Positions 1 through 40,500 of a stretch of 64,000 nt of DNA are shown piece after piece. Under the pieces are notes generated by a model. It searched no databases. It saw only the letters and a program-made list of their open reading frames with translations, and was not told where the DNA came from. Positions within the stretch are counted from its first letter, which is position 1; every line of letters begins with the position of its first letter. Source of the stretch: Lingula anatina (Eukaryota; Animalia; Brachiopoda). Location of the stretch: positions 51,128,788 through 51,192,787 of the forward strand of contig CM120640.1 of the NCBI GenBank assembly GCA_051362555.1, given 5' to 3'. The translations under genes were made by a program, and so were the position numbers.

Positions 1-161
1 CAGACGTCGCGCAAAACTGTCGAACACCTGAGCACATTCCTCTCAGGGAATTTCCTCGATTTTTGCCGTGATTGCTGCCTTTCAGTTCACCAATTGTTTG
101 AGGGTTGTTCTGGTACACATTAACCAGAGGGGATCACCCTGTATAACATTTGTAAAATAAT

Positions 162-163
<2 letters not shown>

Positions 164-239
<76 letters not shown>
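164..239. repeat. (AT)n microsatellite
   Basis: Direct observation. Confidence 0.95.
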
Positions 240-242
<3 letters not shown>

Positions 243-368
243 AAGTATCATATTTTCTCAAAATACAGAATTCATTTTGAGCCTATCTCTGGCACCCCTC
301 TCCTCAAAATACATTATATTAATACCAAATGATACGTTTTTTTTCAATATGACACTTTTTTCATGTAG

Positions 369-3300
369 AATATATGTGCTCTGTGGCTACTGCTTCTGTC
401 CACCAAGGCAACAAAAAGTTTTAGTGTGGTCGAAATGGCAGAGGGATTTAATAACTTCCCAAAGGGACCGCTCCAGGATGATAGTGAGTATTAAACTACT
501 AAGCACGAAATGCTTTCTCTTCTAGCTAATTTGCATTAAAATGCTTCATAAGATGTCACTAAAGTGAAAGTAAAACCGAAGAGTTAGGCCTTTATGCTGG
601 TTCATTAATTAAGTAGTTACATGTATATCATACAATCCATTCTTTTCTAAACATTTTTGACATCGAAATTATAAAACACTACCAATTTTGTAATATGTGT
701 CATTTTGCTTAATAGGTGGAAGCTTGCGGATAAGAAGACAAACAGACGGCCAGACTGGTGAGATCTTATACATGTTCTTCTCTTTGATTTATATTTAATT
801 CTTGTATTATTTGTTGTGAGAAATGATACAAAGATTGAATATTGCGCCCCCCTCTCTTTGTCTTTCTTTATCGCTCTATATTAACTTGTTGTAACAGTGC
901 AATAAAATGTAATGAGTAACAGAGTCTTTAGCCTCGGTCACAACCGCCGTACGGGCTCTTACTGGCAGTTTGCGTCCTAATTTTGCGCAGAATCTCACGT
1001 CCCACGCAAGTCCTTCTTACGCAATTTCGAGTTCGCAGACCCCGTAAGCACGTACGGAGGATGTTGGACATGTCCAAAAGATTCTACGAATAGCCTGCGA
1101 ACAGCGAGGCCGCAAGCGTAACTTGCTCCCCTCGCACGGAGTTAGCAAGAGAGACGCGCGTTGTGCAAGACGCACGTCGCAAGCAATGAAGGAGCAAGTG
1201 CCCTTTGCGTGTTGAGTAAGGCGCACGCCCTCACAACTAACGAACAAAGTCGAGAGCACACCGGGAATGCGTCGCACGTGCGTCACCCCCCACGCCTGAT
1301 GTATAAAAGGCGTGCTCACGACGCACGCTCGTGTCTTTACAATGAACGTCCACTGTGTAACGTGTACGACAATTTCGTGCGTCCGGTTGTGACCGAGGCT
1401 TTTACTGTTGTAAGTTGTATGAAGTACCAAATACTGACGACATTCAGTAGGTGTAACTTGGAATGTATTTAAAGTTTCTTAAAGTTGTGTAGCAAACTAA
1501 AGCGTTTGTGGATACTTTGAACGTTGGAGACATGATCAAAGCATAAAATCGTTGACATTTTGAAATACAAAAACCTCATTTTAGAGACACTTCAGACTTA
1601 CCGTGTATCTCTACGGGTTTATTTCAATAAAAATGATTTTTAAACCTAACCTATTCTTGTCCTCCCTTTTCTACTCATCTTCTCTCTCATAATGATTGTT
1701 CTTTTTGTCTCTATTTTCAGTAAAAACTGCTGGAGGAACAGAATTTGTGATAATGTTTATGAACAATATTGTAGAGTCCAGTGACACCACACCCTTAGAA
1801 TTATATTACACTGGCGCTGATGACGCCATAAGCACAAGGATAAATGTCAATGTGACATACTACAGCCCGGCAAGTGGAAGCATACAGCATATAGAGCGTG
1901 TTTTGATGAGATCGACCGATATAGACTCCGTTCAATTAGACTACCAGCTGAGGACTATGACAAAAAATTCCATATCCAACTTTGGAGTTCAGGTGACATC
2001 CAGCGAAGCTATTATTCTGTACGGTATGAATAAAGCGCGTTATTCCTCCGACGGCTTTCTTTCTATCCCTGCCTACGTACCCGGAAAAGAGTTCATAACA
2101 GTTGGCTATCACCCTCCCACCACCGCATCGCAGATAGGCATAGTGGCCCAGCAGGACAACACCATGGTAACTGTGAGGCTACCGGCTAACAGAGTCTTAC
2201 CTGGCAACATCACTACGTCCATCGAGGTGAGGGATCCAAATACTCAAGCCATTGTTACAGCAGGAGGTACAATCACCGTTACACTTAATCGTTTGCAAAC
2301 CTACCTTATTGTAAGTAATGCCGATGACGGAGAACTACCAGCAGCTTTTAATTTGTTGAAGGGAGATTTGACAGGTACACATATAACCTCAGACAAAGAC
2401 ATATCTGTCTTCAGTGGTAACATCAGGACTTCGATATTGCCCCCTGCTAGTATAGATCAGCCTTCGAGAGACCATTTAGTAGAGCAGCTGCCACCTTTGG
2501 AGACATGGGGTCAAAACTTCATCACCGTTCCAGTCCCACGACCAGCGAGCACAGCTCCTCTGTACGATTTGTTCCGGATAATCAGCGGCTCCCTTAGTCC
2601 CAATACCATCACCATATATCATAGCAGTGATAACATTACAACACTAACCATCAACAACCAGGGTGGCTCTGTCGATGTCAAAATTGGTACCTACGCATAC
2701 ATCGTTTCTGCTTATCCAGTCTTGGTTGCCCAGTTTGTCTTGAGTCAGCAGGTTCTAAATGTTGACAAGGCAGATCCTAGTATGATCTTGGTCCCGCCAA
2801 TTGAACAATACCACGACGATTACCATTTCACAACACCAGCTGCAGTTGGTACCACTTACGACCATTTTTTCCTAATCGCAATACGAGACAACTTCAGGGG
2901 TTCTGTGTTACTTGACGGAGCGGCGCTACCGTCCGATACAACTTGGACCACTATACCTGGTTTAGGTGGATACAGTGGGGCCGTACTGAGTATCGCTGCC
3001 GGTGGTCACAATATTACTCACAATTCTGAGACTTTTTTGGGTATACTGTATGGAGCCGGGGACAGAGAGAGTTATGGACTGCCTGTTGGAATGCGCTTCA
3101 ATCGAATTGTTCCGGTAAGAATGATTAAATTAATATATGAACAATTTTACAGTTTGGAGAGATTACAATGTAGTCATTCAAATAATGTATAGTAAAACAT
3201 CTTTTTTCACCACCTTTTCTTCAGTCATAATATACCCTAAAGGTACCCCCCCTCCCCCGATGAAATAGTATCCTATATCATTGTTATCATCCTTATGTGA

Positions 3301-6300
3301 TGGTTGCACGACCAATCGCTTTAATTTGTTTGTCAGCCATTCCTTAGTTAGCAAAATACTTCGATGAATAATACCACACCTTTTTAAAACTATCAACCAA
3401 ATTAGCAACTGAGGTCAAGTACCGTACTAGTGGGTTATATTTTGGATAGTGTTAGCTTGAAATATTGTTCAAAAATTTTTTTTTAAAGATAATATACCAC
3501 AGCTAGCTGGCCTGTTAACGAAAAGAACTTATACATGCACAAAGCATAAATATATTCTTAAACAGACAAACTTGCAAGAAAAGGGGGGGGGTTGAATAAA
3601 GTGTCTAAGTGTCTGTAGGTTTTTATTGTTCTGTAACAAAACATGCGTGCTGTATGCCTAATATAACGGTCACTTATGGACATGGGCATACAATTTGTTA
3701 GCAACCATGTTTGAGTTGTGGGAGGACGACTTTTTGTCCTGACAAGAATTGACTCTCAGTATTCGTGTCTGTCAGGAAAAAATAAGTTACCGTTTCATTA
3801 AAATTTGCTTTGACGGAGTTATTCACACTAAGTCTGCTCTTTTGGTTGAATTCTGTTAAGTGGTTAACGAGCAGAACCTTTCCTAATTTTGAGGAAATCA
3901 AAAATGTTCAGTTTTTAAATTTAGAAATGCATTGGCCCTTGGTATGGTAAGTGATTAAAAGTAAAAACAACCCCATGGGAACCTTAATGCTCTCGTTTTA
4001 TGCTCAAAATCCGCCAACACTATGGGTTTGTCATTCAACTCCCCTAAAATAACACCGACCAAGCCTCAAATTTAACTGCCATGCTCTTTGAATTATCATA
4101 TTTGAAAAAGCAAAACAAAACGAGACAAAAAAAAAGTCAGTTTCGTCGCTCGTTAAGCAACTTATCCACTTTGTCAGACCTTCGAAAAAAATATCTTATA
4201 ATTAACTTAATGATGTCCCGTTTTCTTTTTTCAGCTTCCTCCAGGTATGAACGAGTGCTCAACCCCTTAACTCGTAGCTGAAAACAAAAGTTTGATGTTT
4301 AATCTTTGTTATACTTAGTATCAGAATATCAATATTTAAGTAATAGTCGTGATTCTATTATATGATATTGCTTAAATGTCACAAAATGTGATCAGAATTT
4401 AGTAGAAATGTGGGCAGATGAGCTAATTGATTTTAAAATAATCATAAATATCATTCTACGTGTTTTATGTTTTTAACAAAGGTAAACCGTTCTAAAACCT
4501 GGCTAATCAGTACTCTTTTACAGGCCCAACAGGACCAACTGGACCGACAGGTCCAACAGGGCCTACGGGGGCCACAGGCGCAACTGGTGAAACTGGTGCA
4601 ACTGGACCTGCAGGACCCAAGGGAGATACTGGTCCGAAGGGAGACACAGGGGCAACGGGAGCCACTGGAGGGACGGGTGCTGCAGGCAACACTGGGCCAA
4701 CTGGGCCAACTGGACCCACTGGCAGTAAAGGTGCTTCCGGAGAAAAGGGTGCCATTGGTTCCACTGGTCCAACAGGTTCCACCGGTGCCACAGGTGCTAC
4801 AGGTCCTAGAGGAGAAACTGGAGCAACTGGACCACGTGGAAGTGTTGGTGAAACTGGGCCGCAAGGTCCAAAAGGTGCTGTAGGTGCGACAGGCCCTGCT
4901 GGTATGACTGGTGCAACAGGTTTAAAGGGGGATAAAGGTGGCACCGGAGAAAAAGGAGCTATTGGCCAGACAGGAGCAACTGGCATGAAAGGCACCAGTG
5001 GACAACAAGGCCCAACTGGGCCCGTTGGGCCCACTGGTGTAACAGGGCAGAAAGGTAGCAAAGGGGAAATTGGCATCAAAGGAAACTCTGGAGTGGATGG
5101 TATAAAAGGTGAAAAGGGTGTACAAGGGGACAAGGGCAGCCTTGGTTCAACAGGACCGAAAGGGAATCAAGGGAATACCGGGAATACAGGGCCAGCTGGA
5201 GCAAAAGGACAGAAAGGTGAATTTGGCGCAACAGGGGAAACGGGACCTGTTGGCCCAACTGGACAAAAAGGAAATTCTGGTGCAATTGGCGCAACCGGAC
5301 CAGCCGGCAATAAGGGAGAAAAAGGGCAAATTGGTGCAGTAGGTGCCACTGGCGCCACAGGCCCAACTGGGGCAATTGGCCCAACAGGCCCTCAAGGACA
5401 GAAAGGAAATGTGGGTGCCAAGGGCGAAATAGGAGCCAAGGGATCGATAGGAAATACTGGTGCGACTGGCAGTACAGGCCAGAAAGGCGACAGAGGACAG
5501 ATTGGACCAACAGGTCCAACAGGATTGACAGGCTCCCAAGGTATACAAGGAGAAACGGGTCCTAAGGGAGACAAAGGCATGCAAGGAGAGAAAGGTACAC
5601 AAGGTGAAATTGGTCCGACTGGCCCCACAGGAAATAAGGGAGAGCAAGGAGCTAAGGGAAATGTTGGCAATACTGGACCAGTGGGAAGTAAAGGGGACAA
5701 GGGAGAAATTGGAGCAGTAGGTCCAACTGGCAGCACTGGCGCTACTGGGTCTAAAGGGGACAAAGGAGATCTTGGCCCCAAAGGTGTTCAGGGTCAAACT
5801 GGACAGACAGGTCCTCAAGGCAATACTGGAAATAAAGGAGAAGTAGGGCAAAAAGGAGAACAAGGAATACAAGGAAATACCGGTCCCACTGGGGATGTTG
5901 GGCGTACAGGAGAGAAAGGGGCCATTGGTGATAAAGGGCAGAAAGGTGTACAGGGTTTTACTGGAGCAACTGGATCTACTGGCGCCACAGGTGCTACAGG
6001 TGCCACAGGAGCCACTGGTCCTAAAGGTGATTTAGGATCAAAAGGTCAGAAAGGTGCTATTGGACAAACAGGAGTTCAAGGACCCAAAGGATCACTAGGG
6101 CCTACTGGAGCGACTGGCGTCACCGGGAATAAAGGTGAAAAAGGTGTTCAAGGCCAAATTGGAAATACTGGACCAAAAGGAGCCAAGGGAGAATTAGGCA
6201 ACACAGGGCCTACAGGAAGTGTTGGTCCGACTGGTGCAACTGGACCACAAGGGATTTCTGGAATTAAGGGGAATGTTGGAAACACAGGGCCTACTGGTTC

Positions 6301-9300
6301 TACGGGTGCGATTGGCTCCACTGGAGCCACGGGTCCAAAAGGAAATGTGGGAAATACGGGTCCAAATGGACAAAAAGGAGTGCAGGGAGAGAAGGGCAAT
6401 GAGGGGCCGACTGGAGCCACTGGAACTACAGGGGCCACAGGCCAAAAAGGTGCAATTGGTGGCACTGGCCCAACTGGGGCAACTGGTTTAACTGGTCCTA
6501 TAGGAGTAACAGGCGCGACTGGTGCTGTTGGACAGACGGGCCCAGCTGGAAGCACTGGACCAAAGGGTAATAAAGGAGAGATCGGTGCATCTGGGCCAAC
6601 TGGTCCAAAAGGCAATATAGGGGCAACAGGAAACACTGGAGCTACTGGTAGCACCGGAGCAACTGGACCCGTTGGTTCTACTGGTCCTGTAGGTTCTACT
6701 GGAGCAACAGGGGTTACTGGCGCTAAAGGGAATATAGGAGCCACGGGACCAATTGGTGCCACAGGAGCAACTGGTGCCACTGGTATCCAAGGTAACACAG
6801 GACCAAAGGGAGAAAAAGGTAATATAGGTAATACGGGAGCAACGGGTGACAAGGGTGCTCAGGGTAATACAGGACCCAAGGGACAGAAGGGGGCCTTAGG
6901 TGCTAAAGGGCAAAAAGGTGAATTTGGACAGAAAGGTGTCAAAGGAGAGTTAGGAGAAAAAGGTTCCGTTGGTGCGACAGGAGTAACTGGGTCCAAAGGA
7001 GAAAAAGGAAGCATTGGGAGTAAAGGTGACAAAGGTTCAATTGGTTCAACAGGACCAGTTGGGGCCACTGGCTCCCAGGGAAACACTGGACCCACCGGTG
7101 CAACGGGTTCCACTGGTCCAACTGGTGTTACTGGTGTGACAGGAGCTAAGGGCACTAAAGGTGATCAGGGTGTCCAAGGCAATACTGGCCCTGTCGGATC
7201 AACTGGTGCCACGGGCCCCACGGGCTCCACTGGGGCTACAGGCCAAACTGGACCAAAAGGAATTCAAGGGCAAACAGGATCCAAAGGATCTGTCGGGGAT
7301 AAGGGAAGTAAAGGTGATGTGGGAAATACTGGTGCTACCGGACCTGTGGGTGCAACTGGAGCTATGGGAGGCACTGGACCTGTAGGTGCCACTGGTCAGA
7401 AAGGTGCAGTTGGTGCCACAGGAAATACAGGGCCGAAGGGAAACATTGGAAACACTGGACCGATAGGTGCAACGGGGCCAACAGGGGCAACAGGAAGCAC
7501 TGGACCTGTTGGTGCCACTGGTCCTGTAGGTGCCACGGGTGGTAAAGGAAACAAAGGTGAAAGAGGTGCACAAGGTCTGACAGGAGCAACTGGTACAACT
7601 GGTCCTGTCGGTGCAACTGGTGTCACTGGTCCACAGGGAAATAAAGGCGATAAAGGTGAAATAGGCAACAGTGGCCCCATGGGTCCCAAGGGAAATGTTG
7701 GAGCAACTGGAGCCACAGGTTTAAATGGAAATACAGGGCCAACAGGGGTGACTGGACCGGTGGGTGCCACTGGAAATACAGGCCTCCAAGGTTTAACAGG
7801 ATCAACGGGTGTAACAGGTCTAAAGGGTCAGAAGGGTGAAACAGGGAATGTAGGCAGTACTGGTCCAACTGGCCCCGTGGGATCCACAGGCAAGTGCATT
7901 ACCTAGCTAAGCTGGATATAACGGGTTTAATATCTAGAGACGTATATATTAAATGCTAACCCTTAATGGAATCAATTTTAAATGCTTGTTTTAGGCATAA
8001 CCGTGTCGCTCAATTTATTTTTCGTTTATATGAATCATTGCAATTTATATATATAACATAAGCCTGAGTTTTTGAAAAAAATTTAATGATTAGGCACTAC
8101 TGGGCCACAGGGCAACTCTGGTCCAAAGGGCGAGATAGGTGAAAAGGGGGCTGTTGGCAGTACAGGTCCAGTTGGAAGCACTGGTGCAACAGGGCCAGTA
8201 GGTGCAACTGGAGCCACTGGACAACAAGGACCAAAGGGAGATGTTGGAAACGTAGGTCCCACTGGCCCTAAGGGTGCTGTAGGTGCCACAGGTGAAACTG
8301 GACTGATTGGTAATACAGGCCCGATGGGTCCTAAAGGCAATAACGGCAATACTGGAGCCACTGGACCTGAAGGTGCCACTGGTCCCCAAGGACCAAAAGG
8401 TATCCAGACGTCTTTTAGCCAGTCCTCTTCTTGTTGAACAATAAACTGGATAATTATAACTTTTGAAATGTCAAAAGTACTACATTATTCGTGATAAAAT
8501 ATATTGATACTTATAAGCAAATATTTCTGTAACGTGAAAAACAAAAATATTGTGTAGATTTTTAAAACTTCTATATTCTTTGGCACTGTTACTTATGGTC
8601 AGCATTGTTATTGCCAAATTTTCTCACTTAGGTGAAAAGGGGATTCAAGGAATTTCAGGCATTACCGGTTCTAAAGGAAACCAAGGCGAAAAGGGCGTTA
8701 TCGGACCCACTGGGCAAAAAGGGGAACAAGGAAATACGGGGTCAGTTGGCCCAACTGGTGCAACAGGACCTATTGGACCTAAGGGGAATGTAGGGGCAAC
8801 TGGATCCACTGGACCTGTTGGTGCGACAGGACCTACTGGTACAAAGGGAGAGAAAGGTGTCATTGGGTCCACTGGACCAAAAGGAGCCGTTGGCGATAAA
8901 GGAAGCAAAGGTGATGTTGGACCCATTGGTGCTACTGGCGCAACAGGGCAGAAAGGAGAGACTGGTGAAAAGGGTGTGCAAGGTATATCGGGGATAACAG
9001 GTGCCAAGGGAGAACAGGGCCTACGAGGACCAAAGGGTGAAGTAGGAGAAAAAGGGAGCAAAGGAGAGATAGGAAACACTGGTTCGACAGGTGCAACAGG
9101 TTCTGTTGGAGCAACAGGCCCCGTGGGAAATACAGGTAATGCTTTAATTATTGTGTTGTGAGCACTTTATGAATTTTAGCCATGTTTGAGTATTGCGGTA
9201 TATTTACGCGCGTTATTTATGGGAGGAACTCTCTAACATATCATATACATTAGCTGATGCTGTTTAAAACGGATTCTGATCATTCCATATTAGGGGCAAC

Positions 9301-10402
9301 TGGTCCATCGGGACCAACGGGAGGTACAGGACCACAGGGACCAAAGGGTGAACAAGGAAATAAAGGAGATCAGGGGAATTCGGGACCGATAGGTCCAGTC
9401 GGTTCCACTGGATCTGTTGGTCCGACAGGTGCGACAGGATCCACAGGTCCAGTTGGAAGTACGGGCCCCATTGGACCTACTGGAGGCACAGGGTCTATGG
9501 GACCCACAGGACCTACAGGGGTCAAGGGTGAACAAGGTGTCTCTGGGATAAAAGGCCTGAAAGGAAATGTTGGTAAGTTATATTTCCGTGCAGCAGTTTT
9601 AAGATGGTCGTTTTAAGATGAGTTTAATGATGTACGAAGAATAAACAATAAGCACAAGATAACAGTAAATATTCCTTACATTAGACATAAATATTATTGC
9701 GTTTAAGTGAATGTGTCATCGATTTGACTAGATTCTTCTTTTACGTTAAGGCGCTAAAGGAGAAATCGGAGAAAAGGGTTCCAAAGGAGATCTCGGGTCG
9801 ACGGGCTCTACTGGACCAACAGGTCCTTTTGGTCAAAAGGGTGACCGGGGAGCTACGGGACCAGTTGGAGCTACTGGACCACAAGGCATCGGTGGACCAC
9901 CAGGACAAAAAGGAGTCCCTGGCTCAGCTGGCCCAACTGGAGCAACAGGCCAGAAAGGTGAAGTTGGTGGTGTTGGAGCAACAGGAGCAACTGGTCCACA
10001 GGGTGCAACTGGAAACAAAGGTTCAAAGGGCGAAGTTGGGGTCAAGGGGGAGGTGGGTGCAACAGGAGTATCAGGACCCCAAGGTGCAGTTGGCGCAACT
10101 GGTTCGACTGGACCTATGGGTCCAACAGGAGAGAAAGGGGCGCTCGGCCAGAAGGGCGAGCGGGGATTGGTTGGACCAACTGGACTTAAAGGTAATGCAG
10201 GAGAAAAGGGAGAAAAAGGAGCATTGGGATCTAAAGGAGATACTGGATTAACTGGTGCTACAGGATCAAGTGGCCCCACTGGACCTCAAGGGAACAAAGG
10301 TGAACCAGGTGCTCAAGGGCCAAAAGGTGAACCTGGTTTTAATGGTACAAGAGGACTGAAGGGAGATGTTGGGCCACAAGGGCCACCAGGTAAATTATTT
10401 TT

Positions 10403-10487
<85 letters not shown>

Positions 10488-11118
10488 CATAACATCGTAC
10501 GGTTTTGGTCTTCTGAACGCACAAAACTGTATAATTTGCATATGCTATGATTTCAATTCAAAACAATACACGGAGCTCTTTTAAGTAGATAATATTAAGT
10601 GCACTTAATTCTTACTTTGTTCTTAGCATGCTACCTATTTTTCTTGTTCTTTTACAGGAGTAACCGGTAAGGATGTCCTTCCGATGTTAGGGGAATACAG
10701 ACTTGGTGAAATATTTTAAAAAAGTGATAACGAAAGCTTTTCGTGTACAATTATGCTGCATCAACTATCAATGGATGGTTAATACACAGATAAAGGTCAC
10801 TCTCCCCTTGATTAATTTGTGAAAATTTGGATAATACAATTATGATGCAACAAGCAGTGCTGAAAAATAACAATACTGAGCTGAAACATATAGCAAAAAA
10901 ATGTGTTATCTGTCCATCTCCCTTCAGTAACTTAGTCAGGTGTGTGTCTATTTCAGATGTCGACGAGTGTAACTTTAATAATGGTAACTGTAGTCAGCTG
11001 TGCATCAATACAATTGGGAGTTACTACTGCTGCTGCTACGATGGGTATGAACTAGAAAAAGAAAATCTAGTAGTGCATAGTCGATTGGCAGATGTTTCCC
11101 AATGTCTTGTCACAGGTA

Positions 11119-11176
<58 letters not shown>

Positions 11177-14100
11177 TACATTTTCATTACATTTGGATTT
11201 GCAGGTATAATTTTATTTCTGAAGCATATGAAGAAGCATGCTACAGTTTGTTTCATATTCAATTTTGTCTAAGTTAAGATAATTGATTTCATTTATTTTG
11301 TCCCACTGTCGCTAAGTTGAATTATGTACTGTTTACTTAAACACCCGATTTAGTGACTCGTTGTGTGACAGTTTATATTTATCCGTACACTTATATAAAG
11401 ATAATCCAACGCCAGGTGTGATCTCGCCGATTTATATTATTTTTTACTTAAATCGATAAGAATTAACAAAGTTGTTTTTTCAGGATCAAGGAAGAAAAGA
11501 CAGACAGCGGATTCTACAGGTTAGTTCCAATTTTAAGGCAATTTAGGTTCTTGTTTTTCATATGTTTTAAATTATGTCATATCCAACATCTTTCATTTAC
11601 TGGAGAAGGTTGTCGTCTTAAATAGTCAATGTGACATTGTTCTTTGACACGGCCATTTTGTGCTGTAAGTAAAATTTAACTGATGGTTACATTTCATTAC
11701 ATCCAGACATCATCGACGCAGAGGGCAATGTGTATATGCTTATGTACCTTAACAACATAGTAAATGACAGTCCGGACAATACAGCCACCCAGGAGATGTT
11801 TGTTACCGCCGGCAAACAAGATGTTAATCAAACTGTTGTGGTAACAGTAACCTATTACGATACCAGCGGGGTGAAGGTATCTTTCGACTATACCATAAAC
11901 CCCGGTGCCGTTAGAAGAATTGATCTCTCAGGAAGAGGGCTGTTGACAACTGGAACAGGAATGTCCATGAATGGCATAGAACTAAATAGTTCGAACCCTA
12001 TCATTGTCTACCCTGTTAACAAAAAGTCCTATTCTACTGATGGTTATTTAGCTCTTCCGGTTGATGGTTTGGGTGTGAGATATTACGCTGTGTCCTACCC
12101 TCCATATGATGAAGAATCTGCTTCAGTATCTTTAATTGGAGTTGTCTCTCCGTCAGACAATAATATTGTCCTCATCAAATTACCCACTCTGGGTGGACCA
12201 ATCAGTTTCAATGGTTTCCAGTACGGAAGTGGCGAAACTATTAATATAACCCTGCAAAAATTCCAAACAGCACATATAGAGAGTGGCTATGATCTGACAG
12301 GAACTTTTATTAATAGCCAGGAACCAGTGTCTGTATTTAGTGGAAACGGTCGAACAGCAATTCCTAAAACAAGAGCCTCAAGGGACCATCTTGTAGAACA
12401 AATTCCACCAGTGCAATCATGGGGACGAGATTTTGCAACAGTTCCAATCCCGGATAGAACAGTTGGAGATTACTTCCGATTTGTTGCTAGTCTTGAAAGC
12501 ACAACTATTTCTGTTACTAGCAGCAACGGGACCAAATGGACGTACACTATAGCTAATGCTGGTGGTTCTATACAGGATATCGTCAATTTCAAATCTACTG
12601 ACCGCTACCGCATTGTGTCCAACAAGCCAATTTTGGTAATGCAGTTCGTTACAAGTCAGTTAACGGCATCGGACGGCGAAGTGGCTGACCCAGCTATGGT
12701 CCTGATACCTCCTGTGGAGCAATACAGCCGAGATTATCACTTCTCACTGCCAAGTTCGCAAAGTGCTATTATTTTGGGTAACGAGCCCTTCCGACATTTT
12801 GCGCTCATTGTCATAGAGGACATGTATAAAAATGATCTACTGCTGGACGGTGTTGCTGTGACTTCAGTAAATTGGTTGAGCATTGCAAATAACCCTGCTG
12901 CAACAGCGAAAAACAATCTCGTCGGAGGCTATATAAATGTGACTGGTGAGAACATGCCGCATGTTATCAGCAGCAGTAGAAGTGAACCGTTCACTTTTAT
13001 GATGTTACTGTATGGTGCAGGAGACAGAGAAAGCTACGCTTTTCCAGTGGGGATGAAATTAATCAAAATAAATCCGGTAAGGAAATAGATTTGTCTCATG
13101 AGGGTTCTCTCTCTCAACATAATAATAATAATTTTGATAATAATATGTATTTAAACGACAGTAGTTACATGCTAGGATGATGCGTGCTATAAATACATGC
13201 TTACAATTTGTAACTTGATTCAAGCATGCTTTGACGAATGTAAATAACCCTAATCTCAGTAATTTTTCAATATGAAAACCACAAAAAACTTCTGAACCTA
13301 TCATTTTAGTGTGTTTTTCAAGTATCTTATCTTTTTAAGTAATTTGAAAAAGGCACAATGTATATCGATGTTTGTTCTCTAATTTTTATAATGAATGTTT
13401 ATTAATTTTCCTTTTTAACTTCATATCCTTGTCCCTGCAGCCTTCTCCTCCAGGTAACCGAATTTTGTTTAATTGAATTAGAAACCTGTATGTCAGTAAC
13501 AAATTCAATCTGTATCACCTGTTATCTGTTTCAAGTCAAATGTAGATATACTTTTGTTTTACTAATTAAGTAAATTTAATATGGGGAAGTATGGTATATT
13601 TCAAACCCCAACATCCCATTTCATCAAGGAAAGTAATTAGAAAGGCATTTTCTGCATTTATCTACTGTGACTTATTTTATTCCAACTGGTAAACTTTATT
13701 GTACTGGCAAACTCTTTAATTCCCCAATGTCACGTTCCAGTCTGCCGTACCAATGTGGTTGGAGAGTGCTGTTCGTGTGACGTTGGTGGCGGTGTTATGA
13801 TGCCATACAGTGGAGACTGCTGCATAGGTAATTTCCATGAGCTTTCAAAGTGGAAAGAGGGACAGTCGATTTAACATTCAAATCTACCTGTCTAAATTTT
13901 GCTTTTTTTTTCTCAGTGTAGTATATTTTTAAACATATGTCCGGTGATAAACTGGCGATGGTGTGCTAATAACAATAACCTTTACCAACATAGAGGAAAT
14001 TGTAAACATATCAACAAGACCGCTGATGTTTTCATTGGTGAAAAATAAAATGAGTAACAGTGCTGAACTGTTTTGGTTTCCTTCTGATGGTCCGTAACGT

Positions 14101-16852
14101 GCAACATACTAGTCTGCCATTAACCTTTTTTATTTTTGCTTTATTTAATACATATATGACGTTATATTTTCAGCTGAAAATGTGGAGTGCTACTCGCCGT
14201 GCTGTGGAATAGTGTATTGTTATTGTCAAGTTGGAAGCGTTCGCGTTCCACTTAATAAAACAAACTGCATAGGTAGGTTTCGTTTTATCAAAACTTTTCT
14301 GTTATCACCAAGCAATATTTTAATCATTAATTTGTATTGTATAAGGTTCTAAAGTGTAACTCCCTTCTAATCCTGTAATGAACTCTCTGTCCTTAGATAT
14401 ATGAAAAAGTAAACTTACAAAAATTTGGCCGTGGCTACCATGTATCAATTTTTATTGTTATTCGTAGATACCAACGAGTGTGCAATAGACAACGGAGGTT
14501 GTGCTCACACGTGCACAAATACTCAGGTTGGACTCGGTTTTAACAGACGTGGCTATAACTGTAGCTGCTTTGATGGATATAGATTGTCCGACGACAGCCA
14601 TGAGTGTTTGGGTAAGTTTTTATTAATTTATTTATCTATTATTTTTGTATTTATCGGTGATATTATTTTACATGCACCAATTTGTGATAAGATAACGTGT
14701 GTGAGCGTTTTATGAGATGCCCTGAGAGCTGAAAAGATAAACGTGCATACGTTCACTCAAGTATTTTGAAGCCCATTGAAATTAACTGTGGTTAGCACCA
14801 TTAGGAATCGGCCGTTTTAAAAAGATGCACAATGTATAACTCTGGATAGAATAACTGTTACTGCATTACTTCAATTAATGGATAACACGAGAAAAAGATC
14901 TAGTTATTTAACAAGGATAAACATCACATATGTATGATAGGGCCGAAGCCGGTCAATCTTCAGCAAACGTCAGTGGAAGTATTGATCCATGGGTCATCTT
15001 TTTCCGATATGATCTCTAGTTGTTCTTGGCTCGCGTATAGTTATCAGCAGTAGCACACGAGGAAGATCAAAAGTTACATTCTCGTTTTAGTTTGAGAGGT
15101 GAAAAAAATCTCCAGTTTGATATGGACACAAGTACAAACATAACACAACACGTTTTCGTTTTTTTTTTCAGATATTAACGAGTGTGAGACGGCGATAGGA
15201 AGTAACATTTGTGACAATAACCGTGACTGCGTAAACACAATTGGCAGCTTTTACTGCGTTCGCGATGCTATTCCACCTTCACCAGGTAAGCAAGTCTTTA
15301 CTTTCATTTAGTGTTGCCATGAGGCGCTGTGCTGGATATCCCTTGAGTCACCAACAGAGTATAAGAGATTACGATGTGGCTTGAGGTTGATACTAGAACA
15401 CCCCCCCGGACAATTCCCACAGAGGACACCCCCCCCCCCCACCACCACCAAAAATATACATTTATATGCAAATATAAATTAGTGTAAAGTTCAAAACATT
15501 TCATTCATTTTAAGAATATTTTTACAGTGTGATAATAGAACTTCATCATTAAACAAATTACTTTATAACAAATTCGTTTTTTTATTAAGTACAAGTACAG
15601 AAAGTATTATTAAATATCTCATCAAAGTATAACCACCTATCCTCCAGGTAAAGGTGGGGAAAACAGACGAACGGGTAAATAGATAAGAATATTTTCAGTG
15701 TGGTGGGTAGGTGGGTAGAAGTCAAGCAGTTAAAAGTGATGCAAATAATCAAAGGGATGCCTAGATAAGCGAGAAAATTTGTTTATCGCACCTTTCCCTA
15801 GAGATGAACCTTGATTCGAGGCTTACTTTAATCAAGGTTGGATTAATGAAACAATTAAAAGTAACAGTTATATCATCAAAGTGTTACCTGAATGAATGAG
15901 ATCATCTGTTTACCCCACTTTTACTAGGTGATATACTTTGATCAGATTTTAAATTAAATTTTCTATACTTCTATTTCTAAAATTTTTGTTTACTTGTACT
16001 CCATGAAAATAATTTGTTAAATGAAATTAACATTTTCTATCCTCGAGTTGCATCATCACACTAAGAAATATTCATTAAATGGATGAAAAGATTCGAACTT
16101 TTTGCTTTTTCATTTATATTTTTATACAAATAAATATTCATTGGGGGAGGGGGGATTGTCCTGGGGGGAATTATCCGGGGGGGATTGTCCTGAAACCCTT
16201 GAAGCTGTTTGTTTGTTTGTTCGGCTAAATTTGCCTGATGTCAACGATTTAACCTACGTCTTTTGCTAATAAGGAAAGAAAATTGAATGCCACGCTCATT
16301 CTGCTAAAGAATTATTAAATTGTACTAAAATTTAATATACATTTGAAGAAATGGCATTAGAAACGTAGGCAGAAAGGAAAGGAAATTGTGACTTATAGTC
16401 AGTTTTATAGAAAATATAAAGTCCATCTGACGTTTGTGTACTGCTATCACCACAAATTAATTTAATATTAATTTCAGTGTACTATATTCTATATAGTAAC
16501 AGGGATGTAAATGAGATATAATTCTTTGATTATAACCACCACTTTATTTTAAGCCGCGTCCGGTTTAGAAGGAGGGCCACAGGTAATTCGAATGGCCCAA
16601 CAGACAACCAGTACCCAGTTTAATTCACTTACTATTTGGACAGCAGTCCTTTCCATACTGCTCGTGTTGGTAATAGCATGGAACTTCCGAAAATGGCAAA
16701 CAGACAGGCGAAGAAAGAAAAAGGAAGACGATATCATGGATTCTGCGTCCATAGAGACATTTAGTCCTCGCGATATTGATTTTTCATTACGTGGCAAAAC
16801 AAATGACGCCTACATAAAGAACGAAGAAGAACAGTCTAATGATTGTAATTAA
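369..16852 (+). CDS. Gene A: IgGFcBD-collagen-EGF-IgGFcBD-Cys-rich-EGF-TM membrane collagen, 5'-partial, ~2994 aa visible in 19 exons
   Basis: Exons with AG acceptors, GT/GC donors and compatible phases: 369-483, 716-757, 1721-3114, 4235-4244, 4524-7889, 8094-8399, 8632-9135, 9294-9572, 9751-10389, 10658-10666, 10957-11115, 11484-11519, 11707-13076, 13441-13453, 13741-13827, 14174-14272, 14468-14611, 15172-15285, 16554-16852. Total 8985 nt, divisible by 3, ending at TAA. First exon reads [17 protein letters not shown] (signal-peptide-like); the ATG exon was not found and is probably upstream of the window. Colinear with paralog B. Confidence 0.85.
930..1400. mobile_element. Non-autonomous DNA transposon (MITE, PIF/Harbinger-like ends) in a gene A intron
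   Basis: Perfect 17-bp terminal inverted repeats AGCCTCGGTCACAACCG (930-946) and CGGTTGTGACCGAGGCT (1384-1400), flanked by TTT on both sides. GC-rich interior in an AT-rich intron. Superfamily inferred from terminus style only. Confidence 0.75.
1721..3114 (+). CDS. Gene A exon: first IgGFc-binding protein N-terminal domain
   Basis: ORF 1696-3192 has motifs typical of the FCGBP N-terminal (IgGFc_binding) domain: [71 protein letters not shown]. Acceptor ttttcag at 1720, donor gtaaga at 3115. Confidence 0.88.
3857..4164. mobile_element. Possible degenerate MITE
   Basis: Imperfect inverted ends taagtggttaacgagc (~3857) and gctcgttaagcaactta (~4148-4164); no clear TSD. Confidence 0.3.
4524..10389 (+). 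CDS. Gene A collagen triple-helix region (5 exons, 566 Gly-X-Y triplets)
   Basis: Exons of 3366, 306, 504, 279 and 639 nt are all multiples of 9 and all split a Gly codon in phase 1. Continuous Gly-X-Y in ORFs 4904-7906, 8550-9161, 9257-9616 and 10053-10550. Confidence 0.95.
10406..10483. repeat. (AT)n microsatellite (intronic)
   Basis: Direct observation. Confidence 0.95.
10957..11519 (+). CDS. Gene A: Ca-binding EGF exon (10957-11115) plus furin-site exon (11484-11519)
   Basis: [25 protein letters not shown] matches the cbEGF consensus. The next 36-nt exon encodes [12 protein letters not shown]. Confidence 0.85.
11121..11174. repeat. (AT)n microsatellite (intronic)
   Basis: Direct observation. 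Confidence 0.95.
11707..13076 (+). CDS. Gene A exon: second IgGFc-binding N-terminal domain
   Basis: ORF 11730-13088 has [57 protein letters not shown] and [10 protein letters not shown]. The exon is 1370 nt, identical in size to the homologous exon of gene B. Confidence 0.9.
13741..15285 (+). CDS. Gene A exons: 12-Cys module (13741-13827, 14174-14272), EGF (14468-14611), truncated cbEGF (15172-15285)
   Basis: Translations [29 protein letters not shown] / [33 protein letters not shown] / [16 protein letters not shown]...[19 protein letters not shown] / [29 protein letters not shown]. All are phase-1 exons with counterparts in gene B. Confidence 0.85.
15383..16198. mobile_element. Foldback / long-inverted-repeat element in the last intron of gene A
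   Basis: Left arm ~15383-15670 (cccccccggacaatt...atcaaagtataaccaccta...ggtggggaaaacagacga) is the degenerate reverse complement of right arm ~15900-16198 (tcatctgtttaccccac...taggtgatatactttgatc...aattatccgggggggattgtcc). Confidence 0.7.
16554..16852 (+). CDS. Gene A terminal exon: transmembrane helix and cytoplasmic tail
   Basis: [18 protein letters not shown] followed by basic [13 protein letters not shown] (positive-inside rule); homologous to the terminal exon of gene B. Confidence 0.85.
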
Positions 16853-17943: not shown

Positions 17944-17974
17944 TTCTTGGAAATTTAATTTTGGTAATCTTTAG

Positions 17975-18194
17975 TGCTAGAAGGGGTTTCTGTGTCTTCA
18001 GTAAATTTAGCATAGCAAATAACCCTGCTGCAACCATCTCGTTGGAGGCTGTATAAATGTGACTGGCGATAACATGTCGCATGTTATCAGCAGCAGTAGA
18101 AGTAAACCGTTCACTTTTATGATGTTACTGTATGGTGCAGGAGACAGAGAAAGCTACGCTTTTCCAGTGGGAATGGAGTTTATCAAAATTAATC
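17975..18194 (+). pseudogene. Degenerate duplicate of the 3' end of gene A's second IgGFcBD exon
   Basis: High nucleotide similarity to ~12841-13074 (e.g. gcatgttatcagcagcagtagaagt, ccgttcacttttatgatgttactgtatggtgcaggagacagagaaagctacgcttttccagtggg) with small deletions. The donor site is lost and the copy runs into a cac-rich repeat. Confidence 0.85.
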
Positions 18195-34100: not shown

Positions 34101-34489
34101 ATGAAGTTACTACTACTTGCAGCAGTGCTGTTGGCAGTGGCGGCCCACGCTAGCCAGGCCAGCATCATAAGCGGCAACGAAGATATTCTAATCTATAATG
34201 ATAAACTGTTAAATCAAGACATCGAGGGTAAGTTATTTTTACACATGTATACAGATAGTATTGTTCTACAGAATCAGTTTATTGTATTGGAGCTGATTTT
34301 GAAGCAGGCCAGGCGTTACATAACATCTTTTTGCTGTGCATAAATGACATGTTTAGCTGATATATGTGCATATTTGTTTTGAACAAGTCGATTTTATTAT
34401 TCCAGAAATGAAGGAGCATATCCGAAGGAAGAGACAGACAACAACGAGTAGGAAAATACTGCTTTGAACGTCCTCCAACTGCCCCTACA

Positions 34490-34574
<85 letters not shown>

Positions 34575-37500
34575 AACACATACAGGGAAAAGGGGATATT
34601 TTATCCAGCCTTTCATCAATCATTTGTCATTCCATTTAATCATTTATCTATACAATAATTCATTATAAGTTTGTAGACATATTTTCATTGCCATTTTCAG
34701 TGCTCTTTCTGCATTGTAAATATTTTTTTCAGTCCAAAGACAAAATTCTGGTGGACGCCGCTTCCTGCTAATGTTCATGGAAAATCGAGTGGAATCAAAT
34801 ACGAATCCACCTCAAGACATTTTCCTCACACCCGCTAGAGATGCTACCAGTTTAGTTTCTGTCAATATCACAAACATTTTCGACACTTCATACAACCAAG
34901 TTATAACTTTAGTTCGTAATCAAGTTGTCTCGATAACTGTTGGGGCAAACGTTCGCATGATGAGCGGGAATATTATAGAAAACAAGGCAATTCTAATCGA
35001 GTCTACAGAAGACATCGTTGTTTACGGTGTAAACAGAGAAGCTTTTTCAGTCGACGGTTTCTTAGTCTATCCGATCGAAGCCATTGGATCGTCGTATTAT
35101 ACCGTAAGCTACACCCCAGCCACTACCAGGACAGAAATCGGCATTGCTTCTGTGTACGACAATACCCCTGTTCGCGTCACTCTACCGAACCGGGCTCTGT
35201 CTGTACAATGGGCAGGAACAACTTATGGCGCAAATGGAGTCATTGAATTCACTCTGAACAGTATGCAGACCGCTCTCATTCAGTCAGATACAGACGGCGA
35301 TCTCACAGGAACCAGAGTTGAAGTTACCGTTGCTTTAGTGAACGGCCAAATGCCTAAGCTCGCAGTATTTAGTGGGAATGTCCGCACAGCCGTGAAGCCC
35401 GTGACCAACAACCCTTCACGAGATCATCTGGTGGAGATGATACCGCCCATATCCTCGCTCGGAAGACGTTGGTGCTACGTGCCTATACCAAACAGAACAA
35501 CTGGAGATGTCGTTCGTATAGTTGCAAGCGAGTCTGGTGTTACAGAGCTAACCGTCGTTGATGACACAGGTTCTAGGTTTTATTCCATAGTTGGAGCCGG
35601 AAGTTACACTGAGCTAAATATTTTTAAGTACTCCTATCTGTACACAAATAAGCCCGCCCTTGTAGCCCAGTTTGTAATCAGTCAACTAACAAGTCAATCG
35701 CCTGAAGAAGCCGATCCTTCGATGATCATAGTTCCACCAATTGAGCAGTATGACAATGACTATCATTTTGCAACCCCAACTGGTGTAGCAAGTGCCTACA
35801 CTAATTATTTCTTACTGGTCATCCAGAATGCATCCAGAAGCGGAGTCTTGCTTGATGGTCAACCTGTTGCTAATGTTCAGTGGACCGACATCCCTGGCAC
35901 CATATATGTAGGAGGATATTTCACTGTTTCTGATGGAGCCCACAATATTAGCCACCCTGTTGCTGGTATTGACTTCATGGGTATCCTTTACGGCGCAGGT
36001 GATCGTGAGAGTTATGGTTTACCTATTGGAATGAGACTTGAAGAGATAAATGTTATTGTAAGTACTTATAACCTTTTCAAGTAAACGTGAACATAGGTTT
36101 TATAATTATTTTCACAAGCAATTCTATCTTAAAGAAAGATACATATTCAAAACTATTTAAGTAAAAATTTGAATCAAGCGTTATATATTTTCTGCTTGGA
36201 TGAAAGGATGCCCATTTTTTTTCTAATAGATGTTCCTTGTTTAATCATACAACCGCTTTAATTGTCTGAATTATTAATCATTTGATTTTCGACTTTCCTT
36301 TTTTAGCCTACAAGCCCCCCAGGTAAGTGAACTAAGAACACAACAAACTGTAACATTACTTAAATTGTGTTAATAACCAGATAATATTGTTATATCTAAA
36401 ACTGATTGACTTTTTATAATATTTTAATGTTATTGGTTGTTAAAGAAAGACCAAGGCAATATTTATTTTGAATACTTCCAGGTCCTCCAGGTCCAACAGG
36501 GCCAACTGGACCTGCCGGCCCAAAGGGTTCTCCAGGGGTAACTGGTCCTACTGGTCCAGTTGGGCCCACTGGTGCCATAGGCCCAAAAGGAGATGTTGGT
36601 CCTCAAGGTCCACAAGGCATCACGGGCAACACCGGTCCCCTGGGGCCCACAGGACCAAATGGCCCCATGGGTCCACAGGGTGATCCTGGATTCAATGGAG
36701 CTAAAGGTGACCAAGGTGCACAGGGTCCAACAGGTCTACAGGGTGTAGCTGGCCCTCAAGGGGATACGGGTCCAACAGGACCACAAGGTATCCAAGGGGT
36801 CCAAGGACCAACTGGTGCTGCTGGACAAAAGGGAGAGGTGGGTGCACAGGGACCAACTGGCTCTGAAGGACCACAAGGTGTACAAGGTCAGTCAGGTATC
36901 ACAGGAGCGACAGGACCTCAGGGGTTACCAGGTGCCCCAGGCTCATCAGGACCAACAGGGCCCCAGGGTTCTACTGGGGCTGTTGGAGCCACGGGCGCTA
37001 TTGGTCCAACAGGACCTGCGGGTGCTAAGGGCGAACAAGGAAATATAGGTCAAAAGGGAGCCCTTGGTAGCACAGGTCCAACAGGTCCAGTGGGAGCTAC
37101 AGGGATCCAGGGAAATGTAGGTCCAAGTGGGCCTACTGGCGCACAAGGTGTAATTGGTCCACCTGGTCCAACCGGCAGTAGAGGAGAAACAGGTACCACA
37201 GGTCTTCAAGGCCCAATAGGTCCACAAGGTCCCACAGGATCCAAAGGTGACCAAGGAGTAACAGGCGCTGTTGGAGCAACAGGAGCTACAGGACAAAAGG
37301 GAGAACAAGGAAATGTTGGTCCATCAGGGCCACAGGGTCCAACTGGTCAAGCTGGTGCTGTAGGGCAAACAGGAGTAAAAGGTAATGTTGGCGCAACAGG
37401 TGCAGTGGGACCAAATGGAGCAACTGGACAAAAGGGCAGTCAAGGTAACACTGGACCACAAGGTAATGTTGGCGCAACTGGATCTCAGGGCGCATCAGGG

Positions 37501-40500
37501 CCGACGGGAGCGACTGGCCCTACAGGTGCCCAAGGAGCAGTTGGCCCCACTGGAGCAACTGGTGTAGCAGGTGCAACAGGAACCAAAGGATCAAAAGGAG
37601 AAGTGGGAGCAACTGGCACACAGGGCGTGGCGGGACTAACTGGTCAGAAAGGTGAAATTGGTAATAAAGGTGATAAAGGGAATGTTGGCGCCATTGGCCC
37701 AACTGGTCCACAAGGTGCCATTGGTGTGTCAGGCGTCCAAGGACCAACTGGCAGTAAGGGCGATATAGGAGCTAGTGGACCGACTGGAGCAATAGGCCAA
37801 AAGGGAGCATTGGGTGAGAAAGGGAATGTTGGTCAGAAAGGCGACCAGGGAGCCATTGGTCCCACTGGAGCTACAGGAAACACTGGTCCACAGGGTACAC
37901 AAGGTGTGAGCGGTCCAACTGGTGCAACAGGAAGCAAAGGTGAAGTAGGGGCAAAAGGAGTACAGGGTAATTCTGGGGCAAATGGACCAACTGGAGCCAC
38001 CGGTGCAGTAGGAGCCACAGGGCAAAAAGGACAACAGGGAGTGTCTGGAGCTGTTGGGCCGACGGGTGCTACTGGAGCTACTGGACTTAAAGGAAATGTA
38101 GGAGCTACGGGAGCCCAAGGTTTCACAGGCGCAGTAGGCCCTACTGGTGCAACGGGAGCAAAGGGAGCCATAGGAGACCAGGGCCCAGTGGGAGCGACTG
38201 GTGCCGTTGGGCCTCAGGGCAATACTGGACCTGTTGGAGCTAAGGGACAAAAAGGTACTGTGGGACAGAAAGGAGAGCAGGGCATCCAAGGTGTGTCTGG
38301 TGTCTCAGGTCAACAAGGGGCAGTTGGTGCAACGGGAGCACAAGGAAGCTCTGGCCCGACTGGAGCCACTGGGATAACGGGTGCAAAGGGAAACGTTGGT
38401 GCTGTGGGACCAACTGGGGCTCAAGGGCTTGCTGGTGCAAGCGGACCTACCGGAGCAAAGGGAAATGTGGGTGCAACGGGTGCAGTGGGTGCAACGGGAG
38501 TAGCAGGAGCATCTGGACCGACTGGGGCGACTGGTCAAAAAGGTGATCAAGGCAACGTAGGTCCAACTGGTGCAACTGGAGCCCAAGGAGCCACTGGTCA
38601 GAAAGGTGCTCAGGGTAACCAGGGGGTTTCCGGTGCACAAGGTCCACAAGGTAATGTCTGATGTTATATGAAACATTTGCTGTCAGTGCATCCTTCTTTT
38701 TCCACTTTTTAGTGATATTTTTATTTGTACCAATTTGAAATACAAATGTTAAAAGTACATACAGATATCCATGTTAAGGAAATGGGAATAAAAAGCTGTA
38801 TATAGCACTTTTTTAACATATGTATAAAAAGTTCGTATATTCGTTTCGTTTACAAGCAATAGACAATTTGCACATTTTATTCATTGAATTGGCAGGTGTT
38901 ACTGGTGCGACTGGTCCACAGGGTGCCCAAGGTCTCACGGGAGCAATAGGTCCACAAGGATCAACAGGTCCTCAAGGACCAACAGGTGTAACTGGATTAC
39001 AGGGTGCGTCTGGAGTGACTGGAGCAACTGGGCCAACTGGACAAAAAGGCACAAAAGGAGCCCAAGGTGTATCAGGTGTAGCAGGTCCAACCGGCGCAAC
39101 TGGACAAAAGGGCTCTGTAGGTGCTGTAGGTCCAACAGGGGCACAAGGAATCCAAGGGGTCAGCGGTGCTAATGGACCGACAGGAGCTACAGGTACGGAA
39201 TTCTTCGTATATATGCAGAGCAGTTAAATTGGTTATGAGAGAGAGGGGGAGGAGAATCAGGGTACATAATAAGCAGTGCTTTTTATGAACACGATTTCCG
39301 TGACATTGATTATAGAGAGAACAGGACTTGTAGTTAAACACTTTACTCCATTAATTCAAACATTTTAATTTTACAGGCCCAACAGGTCAGAAGGGTGAAC
39401 AAGGAATACAAGGAAACTCTGGTGCTGTAGGACCAACTGGTAGCACAGGTCCACAGGGTAACGTTGGTCCAACTGGAGCTACCGGTGCAACTGGCGCTCA
39501 GGGTCAATCAGGTTTACAGGGTCCTACTGGTAACACAGGGGGTACTGGGCCAACAGGAGCCATTGGTGCCACAGGGAGCAAAGGGCAAAAAGGAGTGCAA
39601 GGAGCATCTGGAATAGCTGGACCTACGGGTGCAGTTGGCTCTAAAGGACAGAAGGGAGATGTCGGGGCTGTTGGAGCTAAAGGAGCACAGGGTATACAAG
39701 GTGTTAGTGGCAATATTGGTCCCACAGGGGCAACTGGTCCTCAAGGACAGAAAGGTGAAGTTGGAAACCAGGGAGCATCGGGTGCAGTTGGAGCAAAAGG
39801 TCAGAAAGGAGCGTTGGGAGCGACCGGAGCTGTTGGTGCCACTGGAGCTACTGGTCCACAGGGCCAGACAGGAGATAAAGGAGCCCAGGGAGTTTCTGGA
39901 GTTCGAGGTTTAACTGGTCCTACCGGCGCCACTGGTGCAACTGGTGTCCAAGGCCAATCCGGAGCAGCTGGGCCCACAGGAAGCACAGGAGCTACGGGAC
40001 CAGTTGGAGCTACTGGCCCCAAAGGTAACTTGACTCAAATATTTTTCAGTGTCTCTAAACTTTGATTCTGGATACTGCTTAAAATATTTTAATGTGTGAG
40101 GAAACCTACGGATACAAAAAAATAGGGTGTAACTTAACTGGAGGTGCAACTTAACTTCTTTTAGGTGAAATCAACTGCATTGTGTTCATTAATTAATAAC
40201 AGTTAGCCTTTAACACACACACATACACACACATTTTTGTTTAATTCTATTAAAACGTGTTTGTTTGTTTAGGTGAAGTTGGGCAGAAAGGATCACAAGG
40301 AATACAGGGTATCAGTGGAGCAAATGGGCCAACTGGAGCTACTGGGCCTCAAGGTCAAAAAGGTCAGAAAGGTATACAAGGGGTATCTGGTATTGCAGGA
40401 CCAACAGGAGCTACTGGTCCTCAAGGCCAGAAGGGGGAGCAGGGTATACAGGGTGTTTCAGGAGCAAATGGACCCACTGGAGCCACAGGTCCGCAAGGCC

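Follow-up and report, generated by a model that had tools for sequence, protein, structure and literature searches.

Two neighbouring genes of the brachiopod Lingula anatina encode long uninterrupted collagens with threonine rather than proline at the Y position

The DNA analysed here (the window) is a stretch of 64,000 nucleotides from Lingula anatina (Brachiopoda; GenBank assembly GCA_051362555.1, contig CM120640.1, positions 51,128,788 to 51,192,787 of the forward strand). A six-frame scan of the window revealed two adjacent clusters of Gly-X-Y repeats on the plus strand, at 4.5-10.4 kb and at 36.5-43.1 kb. Joining exons at splice signals placed the first cluster in a gene of 19 exons (gene A, 369-16852; open frame of 2994 aa without its first exon) and the second in a gene of 20 exons (gene B, 34101-47442; 3009 aa). 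A and B are paralogues with the same domain order: a signal-like N-terminus, a furin-type motif, an IgGFc-binding domain (PF17517), collagen, EGF and another furin-type motif, followed by a second IgGFc-binding domain, Cys-rich exons, two EGF-like exons, a transmembrane segment and a tail. All four IgGFc-binding domains of the window match PF17517 with 162-203 bits (cut-off 25.6), and the sole strong hydrophobic segment of each protein lies near the C-terminus. The unit between the furin motifs comprises 2234 aa in A (209 kDa) and 2216 aa in B (206 kDa), before sugar. A COLFI-like region is absent from both assembled proteins. Note that signal peptides were judged by eye, and that the EGF of A was assigned by its Cys pattern and its likeness to the Pfam-scanned exon of B. 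PDB sequence searches returned no relative of the IgGFc-binding domain and no solved structure. The features are as follows.

369-483 and 716-757, plus strand: N-terminal exons of A, with a hydrophobic signal-like stretch, a short prodomain and the furin-type motif RIRR (aa 43-46 of the in-window part); the window begins downstream of the ATG exon
1721-3114, plus strand: N-terminal IgGFc-binding domain of A, in one exon (PF17517, E 4e-56; RNA-covered)
4235-4244, plus strand: 10-nt linker microexon of A (40 reads hold its letters between 3114 and 4521)
4524-10666, plus strand: collagen of A, 567 uninterrupted triplets (exons 4524-7889, 8094-8399, 8632-9135, 9294-9572, 9751-10389 and 10658-10666; introns all phase 1; GC donor at 7890)
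10957-11115 and 11484-11519, plus strand: EGF-like exon of A (Cys pattern; joint to 10957 in reads) and furin-type exon (RKKR)
11707-13076, plus strand: second IgGFc-binding domain of A (PF17517, E 9e-60)
13441-16852 (stop end), plus strand: linker, two Cys-rich and two EGF-like exons, transmembrane helix (~aa 2920) and cytoplasmic tail of A, predicted from splice signals and the open frame
34101-34227 and 34406-34447, plus strand: signal peptide exon and furin-type exon (RRKR) of B (joint 34447^34733 as a loose read end)
34733-36057, plus strand: N-terminal IgGFc-binding domain of B (PF17517, E 3e-47; RNA-covered)
36307-36322, plus strand: linker microexon of B, seen in reads
36482-38650, 38896-39192, 39377-40024, 40273-40848, 41000-41215, 41485-41772, 42059-42337 and 42491-43129, plus strand: collagen exons of B, 568 uninterrupted triplets
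43514-43699, plus strand: Ca-binding EGF of B with furin-type RKKR (PF07645, E 2e-8; RNA-covered)
43918-45287, plus strand: second IgGFc-binding domain of B (PF17517, E 8e-60; all-beta AlphaFold model, pLDDT 94; RNA-covered)
45567-47442, plus strand: linker, Cys-rich exons, two EGF-like exons, transmembrane helix (~aa 2905) and tail of B

The helix of A comprises 567 triplets (1,701 residues) and that of B 568 (1,704 residues), without an interruption or a cysteine in either; the 9-nt microexon 10658-10666 contributes one further triplet to A. A preliminary description of this DNA had stated that Pro is nearly confined to X, with Y being mostly Thr, Lys or Gln, and tabulation of both positions bore this out. 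The commonest X residues in A are Pro (131), Ala (117), Ser (63), Asn (60) and Glu (57), and X-Pro amounts to 23% in A and B alike. The Y position of A is occupied by Thr (233; 41.1%), Lys (131; 23.1%), Val (58; 10.2%), Gln (46; 8.1%) and Ile (37; 6.5%), with only 5 Pro (0.9%), and that of B by Thr (163; 28.7%), Gln (128; 22.5%), Lys (87; 15.3%), Val (63; 11.1%) and Ser (46; 8.1%), with 10 Pro (1.8%). The X-versus-Y bias of Pro is highly significant (p 9e-33 for A, 3e-27 for B), and Thr is distributed over X and Y as 8/233 in A and 14/163 in B. Furthermore, Val, Ile and Leu together make up 16-18% of Y, a feature absent from the preliminary description.

The few Y-Pro triplets are not scattered. 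As had been noted earlier, those of A (GPP 512, GVP 514, GEP 557, GEP 560 and GPP 566) are all located in exon 9751-10389, and those of B lie near the ends; indeed, the outer 15% of the helix ends holds 10/10 in B (p 6e-6) and 5/5 in A (p 0.002). The KGE/KGD motifs that had been pointed out are also genuinely enriched, KG[ED] occurring 57 times in A versus a shuffled-triplet mean of 19 (maximum 30 in 2000) and 31 times in B versus a mean of 6 (maximum 17). In 7 of 8 tests, Y-Lys, Y-Thr and charge showed no periodicity above the 95th percentile of shuffled sequences; a hydrophobic period of 2.5 in B exceeded it (834 vs 716). Recent tandem amplification of the repeats was rejected, as each chain contains ~90 distinct triplets and uses all four Thr and all four Gly codons.

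Known collagens have a different Y position. Among the 120 best of 800 matches, collagen VII (n=75) has 23.2-38.8% Y-Pro and 1.5-5.5% Y-Thr, COLFI-bearing chains (n=12) have 7.0-28.1% and 5.0-15.0%, and C4-bearing chains (n=5) have 15.2-20.8% and 2.4-6.0%, respectively. A Y-Pro frequency comparable to that of fibrillar collagens, which would have spoken against the preliminary description, was thus not found (<2% in A and B versus 7-28% in the 12 COLFI-bearing controls). The other matches in this set (n=27, mostly microbial-looking) have a median Y-Pro of 0.8% and Y-Thr of 49%. In two COLFI-bearing proteins of the rotifer Rotaria (P0033, P0100), Y-Pro is also low (~9%), with Lys, Gln and Thr present at Y.

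A and B are real, expressed and spliced genes. RNA reads were compared over 260-10400 for A and 34600-47600 for B, with four runs for each gene. In run X7 (oligo-dT), 3457 reads fall on the A stretch and support all ten joints from 483 to 10957 (two as a loose end), so that exon joints across the whole A helix are backed by reads. For B, runs X7, X8 and X9 gave 1701, 2098 and 1120 reads, which show 17 of 18 joints; the one missing among the read rows listed was 42337^42491. Expression of A was thus found in one of four runs and that of B in three of four, X7 having both. The 9, 4 and 22 reads of X1, X2 and X4 on A do not follow the exons and X5 has none on B, which is no test of tissue specificity. 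Of the reads on A, 36 continue 5' into an in-frame upstream exon that was not seen in window positions 1-368. The RNA joints rule out an assembly artefact or a pseudogene, and the polyA/oligo-dT reads spliced across introns rule out a bacterial (intronless) collagen-like gene. Two odd B joints (37932>42057 and 40016>39744), whose loose ends match gene A, were taken for cross-mapping. Microexons of 9-16 nt flank the domains (4235-4244, 10658-10666, 36307-36322 and 45567-45582), all four being present in reads; a fifth (13441-13453, gene A) is predicted only. The A intron 7890-8093 (GC-AG, 204 nt) is skipped in 61 reads of X7.

Several hundred apparently fixed differences separate the X7-X9 reads from the window (255 rows for A, 368 rows for B), so that these reads come from a diverged population or a sibling species. 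For this reason the A:B read density in X7 (~2.8:1) was not used. From 623 read differences 80 were taken, 10 intronic ones were set aside, and of the 70 classed exonic ones 48 are synonymous and 22 are not; in the B helix, 7 of 9 are synonymous.

The two helices differ in length by a single triplet. Moreover, three internal introns are common to both at a shift of +2 triplets (409/465/496 in A vs 411/467/498 in B; chance 2.5e-5). The X/Y identity at this intron-implied offset is 0.162, against a mean of 0.168 over 301 offsets and a best value of 0.208 at an unrelated offset. As the length and the three introns have been kept while in-register identity is at background, selection appears to act on helix length. 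The equal lengths suggest joint assembly of the two chains, or a fixed distance that both have to bridge; either a heterotrimer or a molecular ruler would account for the constraint. With a rise of 0.86 nm per triplet (PMC7824840), the helix would be ~487 nm long.

The best match to the first collagen exon of B is Lingula anatina LOC106170605 (XP_013406006.1, here P0023), the only one among the best 120 of 800 matches to contain PF17517. Like A and B, P0023 has a signal-like start, an IgGFc-binding domain, a Thr-rich and Y-Pro-poor collagen, EGF, a furin motif, another IgGFc-binding domain, Cys-rich/EGF parts and a C-terminal membrane anchor. Its collagen has 309 triplets with one interruption (Y-Thr 41.7%, Y-Pro 1.9%). 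Unlike A and B, it possesses three IgGFc-binding domains and few KG[ED], and has no R-x-K/R-R motif before the first domain. The P0023 domains are 37-44% identical to those of the window and fall into one clade with them (SH-aLRT 95.6), which is made up of the four window domains, the three domains from P0023, two further Lingula domains and five single exons. This tree includes 36 chosen of 179 domains found, with SH-aLRT values as support, and a 60-domain FastTree agreed with it. Within the clade, A1+B1 (62.7) and A2+B2 (77.4) are each joined by one further exon, a weak grouping. The five single-exon IgGFc-binding proteins, taken from public assemblies, are P0151, P0153, P0157, P0166 and P0173, of which P0151 and P0166 may be one gene.

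The frequency of TG[AP] per 100 triplets is 25 in A, 19 in B, 24 in P0023, 43 in another Lingula protein (P0354; Y-Thr 82%) and 1.5 in human VII, and that of KG[ED] is 10.1, 5.5, 2.3, 0 and 11.0, respectively. Because TG[AP] is kept while KG[ED] varies fourfold among A, B and P0023 and is no denser than in human VII, Y-Thr is the shared trait and the charge pairs look auxiliary. The presence of the A/B layout with 42% Y-Thr and 1.9% Y-Pro in P0023 also indicates that the trait is old and not vent-specific. Collagen and PF17517 were found together in 1 of 22 matches of one search, in 4 of 64 of another and in 1 among the best 150 of 11,554 representatives, all of them from Lingula. No annelid protein in those best-candidate sets combines the two, which is weak evidence of absence, and, out of 30 relatives followed up, none of the 12 with names (6 Lingula, 6 molluscs) is from an annelid. 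A metagenome scan led from 115 pattern matches to 6 loci, and collagen was absent from the two eukaryote-like loci read. At window 6010-6763, a few X1 reads match short stretches of A and then continue with different Thr-rich Gly-X-Y sequence, a hint that the organism has more such collagens at other loci.

Besides A and B, the window contains a membrane mucin-like gene on the minus strand (~55940 to 51040), with a signal-like start, N-terminal exons, three Thr-rich exons, an Ig-like exon (by eye) and a transmembrane exon. Downstream of A, a stray copy (17972-18194) is 86% identical to the 3' end of the second IgGFc-binding exon of A (12838-13074). Intron 2 of A carries an element (~931-1400) with inverted termini of ~17 bp, covered by X4 and X7 reads, which is probably a small DNA transposon.

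From the predicted proteins, we give about an even chance to the following reading: A and B would be membrane-tethered trimers that fold from the C-terminal side, have O-glycosylated Y-Thr as their main stabiliser and are released by furin as capped rods with a role in a surface matrix. Register among three anchored chains would be set on the C-terminal side, and the few GPP/GEP triplets there may become hydroxylated and nucleate the fold. The helix would zip toward the N-terminus, with glycosylated Thr taking over from hydroxyproline (Hyp) along its length and KGE/KGD bridges, which are more numerous in A, possibly serving as kinetic clamps. Once cut at both furin motifs, the precursor would release an IgGFc-binding-collagen-EGF unit of ~2,220 aa (206-209 kDa before sugar) and leave the second IgGFc-binding domain on the cell; the first abuts the helix start and would remain on the rod after the predicted cleavage. 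The product would be trimeric rods ~0.49 micrometre long that have a globular head and are probably incorporated into a surface matrix.

The preliminary description had proposed both Thr glycosylation and Lys-acid pairs as stabilisers. The former gains from the conservation of Y-Thr in P0023 and from the peptide (Gly-Pro-Thr)10, which is a coil until galactosylated (PMC11923368); the cuticle collagen of Riftia depends on glycosylated Thr (PMC11766948). The latter holds in so far as the pairs are enriched, but their variation among A, B and P0023 gives them the auxiliary look mentioned above.

Several points weigh against our reading. The bacterial proteins Scl2 and EPclA fold although they have no Hyp and are not rich in Thr (PMC11923368). 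A crude additive host-guest estimate for unmodified chains, which takes each triplet on its own and does not yield a true Tm, is 35.1 for A and 34.6 for B, versus 33.9-35.7 for fibrillar collagens of Hydra, an octocoral and a sea star and 36.8-39.1 for vertebrate VII. As A and B are level with those fibrillar collagens, a need for sugar is not demonstrated and an unmodified helix stays as a rival. Furthermore, P0023 has only four of its six Y-Pro in the end regions of the helix (p 0.07), and its C-terminal end contains none, which weakens the step of a C-terminal nucleus. The comparison of A/B registers gave no salt-bridge peak either (ABA 60 at the intron-implied offset vs a mean of 54.9, sd 4.3).

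That the same rods are stable unmodified at sea temperature, through X-Pro/Ala, beta-branched residues and Gln at Y, Lys-acid bridges and trimeric end domains, with Thr being filler or carrying sugar for solubility only, is possible, though not probable. Such a helix could draw on 147 possible salt bridges in an A homotrimer and on the threefold to fivefold excess of KG[ED] over shuffle; KGE/KGD lift peptide Tm by 15-17 °C (PMC7824840), and the bacterial precedents and the additive estimate are also in favour of such a helix. However, the Lingula relatives keep Thr but drop KG[ED] (to 2.3 and 0 per 100), runs of up to 14 consecutive triplets hold neither Pro nor KG[ED], and the sugar-free (Gly-Pro-Thr)10 does not fold.

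We consider it unlikely that A and B are mucin-like or glue-like proteins whose Gly-X-Thr chain, partly unfolded and placed between the IgGFc-binding domains, serves chiefly to carry glycans. Without selection for a complete triple helix, it would be difficult to account for unbroken runs of 567 and 568 triplets and for a length kept despite divergence of X/Y to background, and the X/Y position bias is strict, even though frog PRIT glue proteins have IgGFc-binding domains flanking O-glycosylated disordered repeats (PMC11237159), relatives bear Thr-rich mucin tails and a membrane mucin-like gene adjoins A and B in the window. That A and B act as a mineral-templating scaffold in the shell matrix, like the Lingula EGF-collagens, is similarly improbable: collagen with EGF and without COLFI is the hallmark of Lingula shell collagens, some of which arose by tandem duplication (PMC4595640), several are marked as transmembrane (PMC13425148), and two FCGBP-like Lingula genes, which cannot be mapped to P0023, are mantle-enriched, but the nine collagen shell proteins listed in PMC13425148 exclude P0023 and its kin, and a term search of its supplement (accessions of P0023 and kin, PF17517, IgGFc) gave 0 matches, the gene ids of Luo 2015 not being mappable.

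To our knowledge, Hyp-free stabilisation by glycosylated Thr is known in animals from a single vent worm protein, studied as peptides. Lingula is a shallow-water brachiopod. Complete, expressed animal genes now carry the Thr-for-Hyp sequence signature, together with a Lingula orthologue; as the latter is from an easily collected animal, the glycosylated-Thr mechanism can now be tested directly, along with its glycosyltransferase and its age. The IgGFc-binding domain at the helix start offers a test of its trimerisation, and an unbroken 0.5-micrometre helix whose body needs no prolyl 4-hydroxylase would interest recombinant-collagen work. A and B are also an exception to a survey in which TGA/TGP enrichment was reported for prokaryotes and viruses and not for the eukaryotes surveyed (PMC11923368). 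Our literature search, with subscription journals mostly outside it, found no description of an IgGFc-binding plus collagen architecture, and the main text of Luo 2015 does not mention IgGFc (PMC4595640). A wider proposal, which we regard as doubtful, is that A and B represent an ancient lophotrochozoan collagen class of furin-shed type I membrane precursors forming IgGFc-capped rods of fixed length, with glycosylated Thr replacing Hyp; the Riftia cuticle collagen would be a longer member, and its chemistry would be of Cambrian age rather than a vent adaptation.

Annelid giant cuticle collagens are 1.5-2.4 micrometre long. With 1,701/1,704 residues (~487 nm), A and B are too short to belong to them, and their Y-Pro differs as well: the longest collagens of Alvinella, Paralvinella and Eisenia (up to 7,700-8,900 aa, gene models) have 21-33% G-X-P. 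The longest Riftia gene model has 36% G-X-P, so that the Thr-type Riftia chain is not evidently among the models. The Riftia pachyptila cuticle collagen is reportedly 1.5 micrometre long (vs 0.49 for A and B) and is said, in work by Mann et al. from 1996, to have Thr at ~40% of Y, a globular end and an N-terminal non-triplet stretch. It shares with A and B the Thr in Hyp's place at Y, a likeness by composition only; Thr glycosylation has been demonstrated there and is a proposal for A and B. The earlier comparison with annelid cuticle collagens thus stands for the Riftia-type Thr-rich Y composition, but not for length, G-X-P or the precursor with IgGFc-binding domains, EGF and membrane anchor, whose only named full relatives are in Lingula.

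Among other systems, fibrillar collagens (~340 triplets, C-terminal COLFI, rich in Y-Pro) do not fit chains of 567/568 triplets with EGF after the helix and <2% Y-Pro. Membrane collagens XIII, XVII, XXIII and XXV are type II proteins with an N-terminal anchor and an interrupted, Hyp-rich helix, and their ectodomains are shed, by furin in several cases. A and B share with them a membrane-anchored precursor and predicted shedding, but were not assigned to this type, as their anchor is C-terminal and their single helix is continuous. Bacterial and viral Thr-rich collagen-like proteins (BclA type; Scl2, EPclA) are likewise GPT/GAT-rich with Y-Pro near zero, whereas A and B come from an animal, have introns backed by RNA reads and encode EGF and membrane domains. 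FCGBP proper is defined by VWD-C8-TIL repeats after the IgGFc-binding domain (PMC11237159), for which A and B have no room, collagen and EGFs following instead. Finally, the Lingula EGF shell collagens (Luo et al. 2015, PMC4595640) resemble A and B in combining collagen with EGF, in having no COLFI and in their tandem copies, but those listed in PMC13425148 have no IgGFc-binding domain.

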